Assembly (NCBI RefSeq): GCF_029227855.1
Contig: NZ_CP074356.1
Reading direction: 5' to 3' (one strand)
Source of the DNA: Escherichia coli
GTDB taxonomy: Bacteria; Pseudomonadota; Gammaproteobacteria; Enterobacterales; Enterobacteriaceae
Length of the DNA: 64,000 nt
Shown piece after piece: positions 17,742 to 63,021 of this stretch (its first letter is position 1; each line of letters starts with the position of its first letter). A program made the position numbers and the translations under genes. Below the pieces are notes generated by a model. The model saw only the letters and a program-made list of their open reading frames with translations, was not told where the DNA came from and did no database searches.

Positions 17742-18278
17742 TCAGAACGGAATGTCATCATCAAAGTCCATCGGCGGCTCGTTAGACGGCGCTGCCGGAG
17801 CGGACTGCTGCGGGCGAGACTGCGCGCCGCCGCTGAACTGATTGCCACCCTGCGGCTGCTGTGGCTGACCCCAACCGCCCTGCGGCTGACCACCACCGAT
17901 ATTGCCACCTGCCGGAGCGCCACCACCCTGACGACCACCCAGCATCTGCATGGTGCCGCCAACGTTCACCACGACTTCTGTGGTGTAGCGATCCTGACCG
18001 GATTGATCGGTCCATTTACGGGTACGCAGCTGACCTTCGATATAAACCTGAGAACCTTTACGCAGATATTCGCTCGCCACTTCTGCCAGTTTGCCGAACA
18101 GCACAACGCGGTGCCATTCAGTCTGTTCTTTCATCTCGCCGGTCGCTTTATCACGCCAGGATTCGGAAGTAGCCAGCGTAATGTTGGCAACTGCGCCACC
18201 ATTTGGCATGTAGCGTACTTCCGGGTCCTGACCCAGATTACCAACGAGAATAACCTTGTTTACGCCTCTGCTGGCCAT
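17742..18278 (-). CDS. ssb: Single-stranded DNA-binding protein
   Basis: 178 aa from ATG 18278 ([16 protein letters not shown] ... DFDDDIPF); Gly/Gln-rich tail. Confidence 0.97.
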
Positions 18279-18430
18279 GTTCGTGTCTCCTGAAAAAAAT
18301 CGTTCTGAATAAGTGTAAACGCGCGATTGTACCATTACCAATAGCGCTTTTACTATGTTGTGACCTCGGTTCCGGGAAACAAACCTGGCCAGACATTGTT
18401 ACACAACACTCCGGGTAATGCATTCCAATA

Positions 18431-18446
18431 CTGTATATTCATTCAG
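18431..18446. promoter_or_regulatory. LexA (SOS) box in the ssb / uvrA divergent promoter region
   Basis: CTGTATATTCATTCAG matches CTGT-N8-ACAG. Confidence 0.85.
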
Positions 18447-18531
18447 GTCAATTTGTGTCATAATTAACCGTTTGTGATCGCCGGTAGCACCATGCCACCG
18501 GGCAAAAAAGCGTTTAATCCGGGAAAGGTGA

Positions 18532-21354
18532 ATGGATAAGATCGAAGTTCGGGGCGCCCGCACCCATAATCTCAAAAACATCAACCTCGTTATCCCCCGC
18601 GACAAGCTCATTGTCGTGACCGGGCTTTCGGGTTCTGGCAAATCCTCGCTCGCTTTCGACACCTTATATGCCGAAGGGCAGCGCCGTTACGTTGAATCCC
18701 TTTCCGCCTACGCGCGGCAGTTTCTGTCACTGATGGAAAAGCCGGACGTCGATCATATTGAGGGGCTTTCTCCTGCCATCTCAATTGAGCAGAAATCGAC
18801 GTCTCATAACCCGCGTTCTACGGTGGGGACAATCACCGAAATCCACGACTATTTGCGTTTGTTGTTCGCCCGCGTCGGCGAACCGCGCTGTCCGGACCAC
18901 GACGTCCCGCTGGCGGCGCAAACCGTCAGCCAGATGGTGGATAACGTGCTGTCGCAGCCGGAAGGCAAGCGTCTGATGCTGCTCGCGCCAATCATTAAAG
19001 AGCGCAAAGGCGAACACACCAAAACGCTGGAGAACCTGGCAAGCCAGGGTTACATCCGTGCTCGTATTGATGGCGAAGTCTGCGATCTTTCCGATCCGCC
19101 GAAACTGGAACTGCAAAAGAAACACACTATTGAAGTGGTGGTTGATCGCTTCAAGGTGCGTGACGATCTTACCCAACGTCTTGCGGAGTCGTTTGAAACC
19201 GCGCTGGAGCTTTCCGGTGGTACAGCGGTAGTGGCGGATATGGACGACCCGAAAGCGGAAGAGCTGCTGTTCTCCGCCAACTTCGCCTGCCCAATTTGCG
19301 GCTACAGTATGCGTGAACTGGAGCCGCGACTGTTTTCGTTTAACAACCCGGCAGGTGCCTGCCCGACCTGTGACGGCCTTGGCGTACAGCAATATTTCGA
19401 TCCTGACCGCGTGATCCAAAACCCCGAGCTGTCACTGGCTGGCGGTGCGATCCGTGGCTGGGATCGCCGCAACTTCTATTATTTCCAGATGCTGAAATCG
19501 CTGGCAGATCACTATAAGTTCGACGTCGAAGCGCCGTGGGGCAGCCTGAGCGCGAACGTGCATAAAGTGGTGTTGTACGGTTCTGGCAAAGAAAACATTG
19601 AATTCAAATACATGAACGATCGTGGCGATACCTCCATCCGTCGTCATCCGTTCGAAGGCGTGCTGCACAATATGGAGCGCCGTTATAAAGAGACAGAATC
19701 CAGTGCGGTACGTGAAGAATTAGCCAAGTTTATCAGCAATCGCCCATGCGCCAGCTGCGAAGGGACGCGTCTGCGTCGGGAAGCGCGCCACGTTTATGTC
19801 GAGAATACGCCGCTGCCTGCTATCTCCGACATGAGCATCGGTCATGCGATGGAATTCTTCAACAATCTCAAACTCGCTGGTCAACGGGCGAAGATTGCAG
19901 AAAAAATCCTTAAAGAGATCGGCGATCGTCTGAAATTCCTCGTTAACGTCGGCCTGAATTACCTGACACTTTCCCGCTCGGCAGAAACACTTTCCGGCGG
20001 TGAAGCCCAGCGTATCCGTCTGGCGAGCCAGATTGGTGCGGGCCTGGTTGGCGTTATGTATGTACTGGACGAGCCGTCTATCGGCCTGCACCAGCGCGAT
20101 AACGAGCGCCTGTTGGGTACGCTTATCCATCTGCGCGATCTCGGTAATACCGTGATTGTGGTGGAGCATGACGAAGACGCAATTCGCGCCGCTGACCATG
20201 TGATCGATATCGGTCCTGGTGCGGGTGTTCACGGCGGTGAAGTGGTCGCAGAAGGTCCGCTGGAAGCGATTATGGCAGTGCCTGAATCGTTGACCGGGCA
20301 GTACATGAGCGGTAAACGCAAGATTGAAGTGCCGAAGAAACGCGTTCCGGCGAATCCAGAAAAAGTGCTGAAGCTGACAGGTGCACGCGGCAACAACCTG
20401 AAGGACGTGACGCTCACGCTGCCAGTCGGTCTGTTTACCTGCATCACAGGGGTTTCAGGTTCCGGTAAATCGACGCTGATTAACGACACACTGTTCCCGA
20501 TTGCCCAACGCCAGTTGAATGGTGCGACCATCGCCGAACCGGCACCGTATCGCGATATTCAGGGGCTGGAGCATTTCGATAAAGTGATCGATATCGACCA
20601 AAGCCCAATTGGTCGTACTCCACGTTCTAACCCGGCGACCTATACCGGCGTGTTTACACCTGTGCGCGAACTGTTTGCGGGCGTACCGGAATCCCGTGCG
20701 CGTGGTTATACGCCAGGACGTTTCAGCTTTAACGTCCGTGGCGGGCGCTGCGAAGCCTGTCAGGGCGACGGTGTGATCAAAGTGGAGATGCACTTCCTGC
20801 CGGATATCTACGTGCCGTGCGATCAGTGCAAAGGTAAACGCTATAACCGTGAAACGCTGGAAATTAAGTACAAAGGCAAAACCATCCACGAAGTGCTGGA
20901 TATGACCATCGAAGAGGCGCGTGAGTTCTTTGATGCGGTGCCAGCTCTGGCGCGTAAGCTGCAAACGTTGATGGACGTTGGTCTGACGTACATTCGCCTG
21001 GGGCAGTCCGCAACCACACTTTCTGGTGGTGAAGCCCAGCGCGTGAAGCTGGCGCGTGAGCTGTCAAAACGCGGCACCGGGCAGACGCTGTATATTCTCG
21101 ACGAGCCGACCACCGGTCTGCACTTCGCCGATATTCAGCAACTCCTCGACGTGCTGCATAAACTGCGCGATCAGGGCAATACCATTGTGGTGATTGAGCA
21201 CAATCTCGACGTGATCAAAACCGCTGACTGGATTGTCGACCTGGGACCAGAAGGCGGCAGTGGCGGCGGCGAAATCCTCGTCTCCGGTACGCCAGAAACC
21301 GTCGCGGAGTGCGAAGCTTCGCATACGGCACGCTTCCTCAAGCCGATGCTGTAA
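18532..21354 (+). CDS. uvrA: Excinuclease ABC subunit A
   Basis: 940 aa; two ABC ATPase modules ([20 protein letters not shown]) and zinc-finger cysteine clusters. Confidence 0.97.
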
Positions 21355-57240: not shown

Positions 57241-57547
57241 AACAATTTCCCTTCATTGAATGAATGGAGATTTACCCAAAAACATTTCGGGCGGGATCGA
57301 GTATACACAACTAAAGCATGCGAATTACGGCGCGGGGAATTAGAGATGGGGTTTTAGGATAATTGGAATGAATATCAAATATAAGCTACAACTTATATAT
57401 AAATAACATTAAAAATCATAATGTTAAAATAAAAGTAAAAGTAATTAATCTGAGTATTTTCCGAAATCAATCACGATTAAAAATCTATTTTAGGATTAAC
57501 CTCACGGTATGATTTCCGTTAAATCACAGACAAGGGGATTTATCTGA

Positions 57548-57579
57548 TAAAACAATGCCGACATAACGTCGGCATTGTT
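57548..57579 (-). terminator. Rho-independent terminator after pgi
   Basis: AACAATGCCGAC-loop-GTCGGCATTGTT hairpin with a T-run on the minus strand. Confidence 0.8.
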
Positions 57580-57594
57580 ATTAAGGTTTTTAAA

Positions 57595-59427: not shown

Positions 59428-59760
59428 TTGACAACCGCCCCGCTCACCCTTTATTTATAAATGTACTACCTGCGCTAGCGCAGGCCAGAAGAGGCGCGTT
59501 GCCCAAGTAACGGTGTTGGAGGAGCCAGTCCTGTGATAACACCTGAGGGGGTGCATCGCCGAGGTGATTGAACGGCTGGCCACGTTCATCATCGGCTACA
59601 GGGGCTGAATCCCCTGGGTTGTCACCAGAAGCGTTCGCAGTCGGGCGTTTCGCAAGTGGTGGAGCACTTCTGGGTGAAAATAGTAGCGAAGTATCGCTCT
59701 GCGCCCACCCGTCTTCCGCTCTTCCCTTGTGCCAAGGCTGAAAATGGATCCCCTGACACG
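59428..59760 (+). promoter_or_regulatory. lysC promoter and 5-prime leader containing the lysine riboswitch (L box)
   Basis: -35 TTGACA at 59428-59433; long GC-rich structured leader with L-box-like elements (AGAGGCGC ..., GGAGG, CCGAGG, GGCTG ... ACCAGAAG) ending at the SD GAGGTAG before ATG 59769; aptamer boundaries approximate. Confidence 0.65.
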
Positions 59761-61262: not shown

Positions 61263-62189
61263 ATGGCTACTTTAATGGAAAAAGATGCACTTTTAAACGG
61301 AGCCAGTCAGTGCATCGCGTTTTTATCAAATATCATTGATAATTGCTCAGTTTCGTCGCATCAGGATTCAGGCGATGCTCTCAAGCGATTAGTCAGCTAT
61401 CGCGATTATCTTTATTCTACCCCCGCTGAACTTGTTGATTTTACACAAGGTAAGATTCTCCTTCAGCAGGTAAGAACTCAATATCAGCATGAATTCAACA
61501 ATACTACGCATTCAGAAAATAAAGCATCTTTTGATTCTATTTGGCAGCGTCTGACAAATCATGAAGTCACACCGCAACAGCATCCCATTGGTTTTGTTTT
61601 AGGTGGGCAACCCGGAGCAGGTAAATCATCTCTGATTGAATTAGCCAAAAGAGAGACAAAAGATAATATAATGATTATTAACGGTGATGATTTTCGATTT
61701 CTACACCCTGATTTTAATTATATCTACCAAAATTATGGGGATGATTTTGTTACCCATACAGCGAAATTTTCCGGCGAAACGGTCGAACGTGCAATTGAGA
61801 GAGCGATAGTCAGTAAACTCAACATTGTTGTCGAAGGAACATTTCGTAATGCCGCGACGCCGTTACAAACATTAAAAAAACTCAAAGATGCAGGCTACCA
61901 AACAGAAGTCATGATAAAAACAACCTCAGCGGCATTAAGCTGGGAAAGCACCAATGAACGGTATAGTAAGGACAAAGAGGCGGGAAATATTGCCCGAAAA
62001 GTGGATAAAAACCACCATGATATCGTCACCGGTTTGCTGGCAGAAAATGCCCGCAAGGTGTTTGCTTCGAACCTGTCAGATAAGTTTGCGGTGTATTCGC
62101 GTGAGAAGATGATATTTAGTTCACAAGCGGCAACGAATGACGATATTGCAACACTTATACAGAATGAAATCAGCGGGAATACACAATAA
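61263..62189 (+). CDS. Zeta-toxin-family P-loop kinase with N-terminal extension (EzeT-like single-chain toxin-antitoxin candidate)
   Basis: 308 aa from ATG 61263 (SD AGGAG 61253-61257; ORF track starts at GTG 61257). Walker A GGQPGAGKSS around residue 115 and colinear blocks matching zeta/PezT (IMIINGDDFRFLHPDF, NIVVEGTFRN, ... HDIV ... YSRE); AT-rich. Confidence 0.75.
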   Translation: MATLMEKDALLNGASQCIAFLSNIIDNCSVSSHQDSGDALKRLVSYRDYLYSTPAELVDFTQGKILLQQVRTQYQHEFNNTTHSENKASFDSIWQRLTNHEVTPQQHPIGFVLGGQPGAGKSSLIELAKRETKDNIMIINGDDFRFLHPDFNYIYQNYGDDFVTHTAKFSGETVERAIERAIVSKLNIVVEGTFRNAATPLQTLKKLKDAGYQTEVMIKTTSAALSWESTNERYSKDKEAGNIARKVDKNHHDIVTGLLAENARKVFASNLSDKFAVYSREKMIFSSQAATNDDIATLIQNEISGNTQ

Positions 62190-62224
62190 TAATAAGAGCT
62201 GATGGCGTGAAATAACGCCGGGCT

Positions 62225-63016
62225 TTATGCCCGGCGCATTACCGTCTGGTACATTAAGCTATCCAGTTCCTTAACGTCCCCTTCTCTGCTATCCGGTAAC
62301 AGCGGTGGAATTTCCCCACGCGCCTGTTCCGCACGAATAAACGCATGTAACAATGGACGGCGCGGACCATATTCCGCTTCTCCTGCGCGCTGTTTACGTT
62401 CCAGTAATTCGTCTATTTCTGCACGTAACGGCGCATCAAGTTCGCTTCCCGCCAGTAACTCAGCAAAGCGCATTGGCGGCACGCCTTTTCCCGCTTCGAC
62501 CCAGCGCACGGCCAGCAGCGGACGCAGCACGTAAAAGTATTTTTTCAGTCGAACTTCATCGCCCTGCAAATATCCGCGGAAGTTTTTCTGCGCCATCGAA
62601 TAGTAATGCCAGCGCGCACGCAGCGGAGAAAACCACATTGGGACCATTGCCTTAAGCGCCGTTATCGTTTCTTCATCTTGTTGATAGACCACCGGAGAAT
62701 CCAGCCATTCTATCAGCGTCGGGTTCGCGCCTTTCAATAATCCCAGCGCCTTACGCCACTCCCAACCGGAAACATCTAACTCGTCGTCGATGGGCAGCTC
62801 GATAACATCGCGCGGCGGCTCCACCCGCAGATACCATTCCAGCGGGTGAACATACAAAAACCGTACATCGTAGTCGCTGTCGGGCGAGGCAAACCCCCAG
62901 CCGCGGCTCCCGGATTCACAGGCATACAGCACTTTCACGCCGTAGCGCCGTTCTATTTCTTTTAACTGCTGCGATACCCGTTCGCGCATCGCAGCACTGA
63001 CTCCATTTAATGGCAT
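62225..63016 (-). CDS. Polymerase-beta-superfamily nucleotidyltransferase, family not assigned
   Basis: 263 aa from ATG 63016 (ORF track starts at GTG 63025); motif ESGSRGWGFASPDSDYDVRF (GS-x9-SD-x-D); SD AAAGGGTGAG contains the stop of the upstream SPFH gene. Confidence 0.7.
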   Translation of the reverse strand: MPLNGVSAAMRERVSQQLKEIERRYGVKVLYACESGSRGWGFASPDSDYDVRFLYVHPLEWYLRVEPPRDVIELPIDDELDVSGWEWRKALGLLKGANPTLIEWLDSPVVYQQDEETITALKAMVPMWFSPLRARWHYYSMAQKNFRGYLQGDEVRLKKYFYVLRPLLAVRWVEAGKGVPPMRFAELLAGSELDAPLRAEIDELLERKQRAGEAEYGPRRPLLHAFIRAEQARGEIPPLLPDSREGDVKELDSLMYQTVMRRA

Positions 63017-63021
63017 GTTAC

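Follow-up and report, generated by a model that had tools for sequence, protein, structure and literature searches.

Is the single LexA box that lies between two divergently transcribed genes an operator for both of them, and does it weigh equally on the two? The question is raised by the intergenic gap of 253 bp (18279-18531) between ssb and uvrA in a 64-kb stretch of the Escherichia coli chromosome (hereafter the window), for which the initial annotation had proposed that one LexA box at 18431-18446 serves both promoters and that two further boxes stand in tandem upstream of lexA-dinF. The window covers the nrfE to lysC region; a 3-kb piece around the box is 100% identical to several complete E. 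coli genomes, and the RefSeq annotation of the matching genomes has the same genes at this locus.

The single-stranded DNA-binding protein gene ssb occupies 17742-18278 on the minus strand (178 aa), and uvrA, encoding excinuclease ABC subunit A, occupies 18532-21354 on the plus strand (940 aa). The gene of the cognate repressor is present in the same window, 17 kb from the ssb-uvrA box: lexA (34712-35320, 202 aa) and dinF (33314-34639, a MATE efflux transporter of 441 aa from its conserved start, with an open frame that reaches up to 34693) lie in tandem on the minus strand, and both are intact. All four proteins score above the curated NCBIfam cut-offs, with 360.1 bits against a cut-off of 260 for SSB (NF006533), 1628.6 against 1147 for UvrA (NF001503), 289.5 against 110.95 for LexA (TIGR00498) and 911.3 against 409 for DinF (NF007690). 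The identity and orientation of the segment, as initially annotated, are thus borne out by the 100% match over 3 kb to the E. coli chromosome and by the placement of lexA-dinF on the minus strand. The "frameshifted" dinF annotated in strain FORC_069 was considered and does not apply to the window, where dinF is intact.

The 16-bp core of the uvrA/ssb box, CTGTATATTCATTCAG, is found exactly at 18431-18446; in its 20-mer form it reads TACTGTATATTCATTCAGGT (18429-18448), ~150 bp from the ssb ATG and 83 bp from the uvrA ATG. The invariant arms CTG-N10-CAG and an AT-rich spacer are present in this box and in both lexA boxes. Because the bare CTG-N10-CAG pattern occurs 27 times in the 64-kb window, the arms alone are unspecific, and a full-matrix scan was run. 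The position weight matrix (PWM) spans 20 bp and was built from 17 LexA boxes (PMC3009722 Table 4), none of them from the window; the lexA entry of that table was excluded because its inclusion would have been circular, and, as LexA binds in dimeric form, the matrix was made symmetric. Among ~64,000 positions, the top three were the distal lexA box (19.5 bits), the proximal lexA box (18.4 bits) and the uvrA/ssb box (16.7 bits), all inside the range of the training sites (12.6-28.9 bits). The fourth-best site of the window scored 9.9 bits, a drop of ~7 bits below the third. The three annotated boxes accordingly hold ranks 1-3 in 64 kb, with no motif mismatch. HI values of our own (9.4, 8.8 and 8.1 for the three boxes) come from a different matrix and are not comparable with published HI; the published value for the uvrA/ssb site is 6.98, below the usual functional ceiling (PMC9505508).

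That the motif might be a functionless chance match of the CTG-N10-CAG type in AT-rich intergenic DNA is suggested by the 27 occurrences of the loose pattern and by one of 200 dinucleotide-preserving shuffles of the window, which reached 19.1 bits. In those shuffles the top score of a window was 10.9 bits on average, with a 95th percentile of 15.7 bits. Against a chance origin, the exact score distribution gives a probability of 8e-7 per position for a score of at least 16.7 bits (1.65e-6 under the AT-richer composition of the gap itself), so that 0.05 such sites are expected by chance per 64 kb and ~2e-4 in the 253-bp gap. The score lies within the range of the validated training sites, and the site is identical to the published uvrA/ssb operator and, as described below, is kept across E. 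coli and at the orthologous position across genera. A chance match is thus vanishingly improbable, and by conservation and literature this reading is effectively refuted in favor of a genuine LexA operator.

No second LexA site above 3.2 bits was found in the gap 18279-18531 among the window's top 25 PWM matches, and the description of the box as single is therefore correct. Beyond the three boxes, the PWM scan of the 64 kb detected no LexA-like site above chance. The best match outside the SOS loci, GTCTGAATGAATACCCAGTA (50886-50905, just upstream of the xylE start), was considered as an additional LexA site and rejected, since its 9.9 bits are at chance level, with 1.5 such sites expected per 64 kb.

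The sequence of the uvrA/ssb site agrees with published operators. The 18-bp core of TACTGTATATTCATTCAGGT, ACTGTATATTCATTCAGG, is printed as the uvrA LexA motif in PMC3009722 Table 7; in that study it precedes the transcript of uvrA that is induced by UV. TACTGTATATTCATTCAGGT is also contained in the uvrA promoter fragment given in the sequence of plasmid pJMuvrA, to which the window is identical over ~150 bp apart from the engineered sites of the vector; this fragment, which spans the uvrA -10 region, drives expression. The uvrA/ssb LexA operator of E. coli K-12 was reportedly described in work by Backendorf (1983) and Brandsma (1985). The operator in the window shares with it the identical 20-mer, the position between the divergent genes and the distances, and there is no difference of substance between the two. 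The operator region here is the common E. coli allele: a 45-bp core comprising the box and the uvrA -10 was recovered from 5,425 of 5,426 complete genomes of E. coli, with an identity of 99% or more in 4,683 records. In two variants that were sampled, the differences are confined to 18429, 18447 and 18449, and the 16-bp core is unchanged. At the sequence level, every testable feature that defines a LexA operator is present. LexA binding and LexA-dependent induction would follow by analogy from the literature on the identical K-12 sequence. We consider it very probable that the 16 bp at 18431-18446 are the canonical operator through which LexA acts on the divergent uvrA/ssb promoter region of E. 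coli, an account that takes in the lexA-dinF operator as well.

Upstream of lexA-dinF, the two tandem boxes annotated within 35329-35365 are present. The distal box (35350-35365, minus strand) reads CTGTGAGTATATACAG on the plus strand and CTGTATATACTCACAG on the lexA strand, and the proximal box (35329-35344, minus strand) reads CTGGGTGTATATACAG and CTGTATATACACCCAG, respectively. The two are 21 bp apart from centre to centre, which corresponds to two helical turns. The proximal box, whose end is 8 bp away from the ATG of lexA (35320), spans the expected start site together with the leader, and a candidate -10 hexamer, TATACT (35360 to 35355, minus strand), lies inside the distal box; it is read from the sequence rather than from a mapped start. 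Its spacing suggests TTCCAA (35378-35383, minus strand) as the candidate -35, with a 17-bp spacer. A strict sigma-70 scan missed the lexA promoter. The operator matches the published autoregulatory operator of E. coli lexA, whose boxes PMC3009722 prints as TGCTGTATATACTCACAGCA (Table 4) and ACTGTATATACACCCAGG (Table 7), and no differences from it were found in the window; for the lexA boxes of Salmonella, the listed distances are 6 and 27 bp (PMC8072944). On a tiling array, lexA-dinF forms one continuous UV-induced transcript (PMC3009722), and after azidothymidine (AZT) treatment lexA was induced 1.8-fold with a 3.1-fold lexA dependence by RNA-seq (PMC11228462). Counted as transcription units (ssb, uvrA and lexA-dinF), the three SOS loci of the initial annotation are a fair description of what amounts to two operator regions with three boxes.

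Two further elements were observed around lexA. A third match to CTG-N10-CAG, which reads CTGGTTTATTGTGCAG on the lexA strand (35391-35406), is weak: its 5.5 bits are at chance level. It is situated upstream of lexA, ~50 bp from the expected start and 41 bp from the distal box. In the 72-bp spacer between lexA and dinF, a GC-rich hairpin with a 13-bp stem followed by a T-run (34672-34701, minus strand) resembles a terminator; since lexA-dinF is reported as one UV-induced transcript, this hairpin may act as an attenuating or partial terminator.

Whether the uvrA/ssb box acts on both of its neighbors depends on where the promoters lie. A strict sigma-70 consensus scan returned no promoter in the ssb-uvrA gap. 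In a relaxed hexamer search, the only good sigma-70 candidate for uvrA combined a -35 inside the box with an extended -10 located 18 bp downstream, TGtCATAAT at 18456-18464 on the plus strand (hexamer CATAAT, 18459-18464). The candidate -35 is TATTCA (18436-18441, plus strand), with a 17-bp spacer, or alternatively TTCATT (18438-18443, plus strand), both of which lie inside the LexA box. Consistent with this placement, the LexA box is described in the literature as overlapping the uvrA -35 (PMC9505508).

For ssb, three promoters have been described, of which LexA is able to repress only the most distal (PMC9505508). The relaxed search gave a candidate proximal, LexA-independent promoter with the extended -10 TGgTACAAT (18326-18334, minus strand), which may be one of the published constitutive ssb promoters; the corresponding block TACAATCGCGCGTTTACACT is conserved in the closer Enterobacterales. 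A second candidate, with the extended -10 TGtAACAAT (18396-18404, minus strand), was suggested by the sequence together with the alignments and is conserved only among close relatives. The distal promoter, ssb P1, could not be placed. The strict scan was empty, and close to the box the relaxed search gave only weak hexamers on the ssb strand, for example, as read by eye, a -35 ATGACA (18461 to 18456) with a -10 TATACA (18439 to 18434). The exact hexamers given here, especially for ssb P1, should be read as candidates.

Published expression data point in the same, unequal direction: uvrA is clearly LexA-dependent, and induction of ssb is weak and inconsistently detected. One rival reading is that the box is in practice an operator of uvrA only, with a physiologically negligible effect on ssb and an incidental back-to-back position. 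After AZT treatment, RNA-seq showed uvrA induced 3.9-fold with a 4.4-fold lexA dependence, as against 1.5-fold and 1.0-fold for ssb (PMC11228462). Earlier microarrays, as summarised in PMC9505508, recorded uvrA induction (~3.5-fold) in one of three studies and ssb induction in none of the three, and the radioimmunoassay studies covered by the same summary reported no induction of ssb. During undisturbed growth, ssb expression measured by droplet digital PCR (ddPCR) was equal in the wild type and lexA3, and uvrA was moderately SOS-dependent (PMC9505508). In Salmonella, the ON state of ssb is LexA-independent under non-inducing conditions (PMC8072944), and in the window ~150 bp, including two LexA-independent promoters, separate the box from the ssb start codon. 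These findings have to be set against RT-qPCR measurements in which UV and gamma irradiation induced ssb and the induction was lost in lexA3, and against the overexpression of ssb in a constitutive-SOS mutant (PMC9505508). They also have to be set against the response of Salmonella to nalidixic acid, where a box with an HI of 6.99 was accompanied by an 11.2-fold induction of uvrA and a 9.6-fold induction of ssb (PMC8072944). A shared LexA site of ssb and uvrA has been stated for the gamma-Proteobacteria, and in those Vibrio species whose pair was separated by a phage, both genes have retained LexA sites of their own (PMC3323433). An exclusive uvrA operator is thus possible though doubtful, and we favor an operator that is genuinely shared but asymmetric, with a direct block of the -35 for uvrA and an effect on a minor distal promoter for ssb. 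With regard to the proposal that the box serves both promoters, the overlap with the uvrA -35 stands; the ssb side is to be qualified, as service there is unequal and only the distal one of three promoters is controlled.

The architecture resembles that of other divergent SOS pairs, such as nlhH/higB-2 of Salmonella and uvrA/ssb of Vibrio, in which one palindromic operator lies between outward-facing genes and both partners are annotated as SOS-regulated (PMC8072944, PMC3323433). The pair in the window differs in that one partner, ssb, is an essential housekeeping gene and has further promoters independent of LexA, which is why the two arms respond very unequally.

For a comparison across species, uvrA loci were picked by a degenerate pattern in the uvrA coding sequence alone, so that the selection is independent of the box; among the matches listed, this gave 120 loci, 116 of them usable. 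An SSB homologue was present in the retrieved DNA of 66 loci from Beta- and Gammaproteobacteria among the matches listed, and in 66 of 66 its gene was divergent from uvrA and situated on the upstream side. With abutting pairs defined by a gap below 450 bp and a box called at 12 bits or more, 13 of the 18 abutting ssb-uvrA loci among the matches listed had a box in the gap, against a chance expectation of ~0.003 per locus. The 13 comprise eight Enterobacterales, Haemophilus, Aeromonas and three Oxalobacteraceae (L007, L009 and L086). In the other five of the 18 adjacent pairs among the matches listed, which belong to other lineages, no gap box of at least 12 bits was found, so the ssb-uvrA arrangement does not require the box. 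A gene stands between ssb and uvrA in 48 loci among the matches listed (gap typically 1.4-1.6 kb), and only two of these 48 had a box scoring 12 bits or more in the 400 bp that precede uvrA.

Two observations from the same loci concern sites outside the Enterobacterales. In Oxalobacteraceae (Betaproteobacteria; L007, L009, L051 and L086), a near-consensus box, TACTGGTATTATATACAGT(A/G), scores 21.8-24.1 bits; it lies between adjacent divergent ssb and uvrA as in Enterobacterales, but is much stronger. In Pseudomonas, five loci (L019, L046, L070, L088 and L119) carry an identical LexA-like 20-mer, TAGTGTGCATCCATCCAGTA, with a score of 11.4 bits and a left arm GTG in place of CTG, and L114 of the same set carries a variant of it. 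This element is located at a fixed 47-48 nt upstream of uvrA, with ssb ~1.6 kb off and a gene between; it may represent a LexA site that is weak or has decayed, or else be bound by another factor.

Alignment of the gap from eight Enterobacterales revealed that the box arms (ACTG...CAG) and the adjacent block TTGTGTCATAAT, which corresponds to the uvrA extended -10 and is near-invariant, are the best-conserved intergenic blocks. They are followed by the ribosome-binding region of ssb and, among closer relatives, by the promoter block with TACAAT. Seven of the eight Enterobacterales genera keep the LexA 20-mer 146-150 bp from the ssb start codon even though much of the sequence in between is poorly conserved, which argues against a box that matters to uvrA only. 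The distance to the uvrA start is more variable (66-97 bp in the eight Enterobacterales). As a cause of the 146-150-bp spacing, a conserved structure of the ssb leader RNA was considered and rejected: RNAalifold gave -2.5 kcal/mol for the eight species, with only a 6-bp pairing between a box arm and the ribosome-binding region and essentially no covariation.

The same alignment bears on the proposal that the conserved block is primarily the site of another regulator, ArcA, with LexA secondary. An ArcA site is drawn in the ssb-uvrA gap in Figure 1 of PMC9505508, and repression of uvrA by ArcA is credited, as cited, to Ogasawara et al. 2005. The conserved positions, however, are exactly the LexA arms CTG...CAG, genome-wide ArcA ChIP-chip and ChIP-seq did not recover uvrA/ssb, and the lexA dependence of uvrA expression cited above is 4.4-fold (PMC11228462). 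A primary role for ArcA at this block is thus highly improbable, and LexA remains the preferred occupant.

The comparative pattern might be taken further, such that the shared operator would be a constrained architectural module, beyond a uvrA operator that adjoins ssb. We regard this as unlikely; the counts of box against adjacency are not corrected for phylogeny and the pattern is confounded by shared ancestry. If true, it would imply selection on the joint geometry of the locus, for example through promoter interference or co-regulation of the pair.

Regulation at the shared but asymmetric operator would then follow the standard SOS circuit. In undamaged cells, a LexA dimer would sit on the imperfect palindrome at 18431-18446; as the box covers the uvrA -35, the bound repressor would exclude RNA polymerase and keep uvrA at a moderate basal level. 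Upon DNA damage, RecA filaments on single-stranded DNA would trigger self-cleavage of LexA and the box would be vacated, allowing uvrA to rise roughly four-fold. In the opposite direction, the same LexA dimer would act on one of the three ssb promoters, the most distal. Given that the two proximal ssb promoters are LexA-independent, ssb would stay highly expressed, and its rise would be modest and confined to strong induction. Upstream of lexA, the two boxes would cover the -10 hexamer and the start region, an arrangement predicted to produce negative autoregulation of the lexA-dinF operon.

The uvrA/ssb and lexA operators, including the unequal sharing of the former, are already known; the initial annotation presented the boxes as known biology and as an internal calibration for motif calls, a use that is justified by the recovery of the published operators with an independent matrix. 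Their value here is that of a control, in that three established LexA operators were recovered at the coordinates given above with a gap of 7 bits to the background; this clean recovery indicates that motif calls in the window can be trusted at ~12 bits or more. How much the shared box weighs on ssb has long been debated in the literature and still is, and the sequence of the window adds nothing to that debate.

Several further features were observed elsewhere in the window. A copy of IS200C (IS200/IS605 family) occupies 41908-42608, just upstream of malM and 23 kb from the ssb-uvrA operator, with a ~10-bp overlap of the flanking sequence; an IS200C at this site is found in five of 5,426 complete E. 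coli genomes. Inside it lies an Rfam match to STnc490 (42479-42602, minus strand, 146 bits). The window is not collinear with the annotation strain FORC_069 beyond 41.9 kb, where local BLAST revealed the IS200C insertion and a small difference near 43.7-43.8 kb (43731-43791). The latter falls at one of three matches to the Rfam family naRNA4 (RF02564), which are located at 7029-7099, 43752-43822 and 47981-48051, all on the minus strand. No tRNA genes were found in the 64-kb window. Other RNA elements are as expected for this region, namely sraL (14337-14477), which overlaps the 3' end of soxR, STnc430 (57437-57586) and the lysine riboswitch (59481-59677) upstream of lysC. After lysC, an accessory cluster of three genes (61263-64000) encodes a zeta-toxin-family P-loop protein (61263-62189, plus strand), an RlaP-family nucleotidyltransferase (62225-63016, minus strand) and an SPFH/Band 7 (slipin) protein (from 63022, minus strand) that is cut by the end of the window. 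The cluster is carried by 1,634 of 5,426 complete E. coli genomes, and PADLOC gave no significant defence-system match for it.
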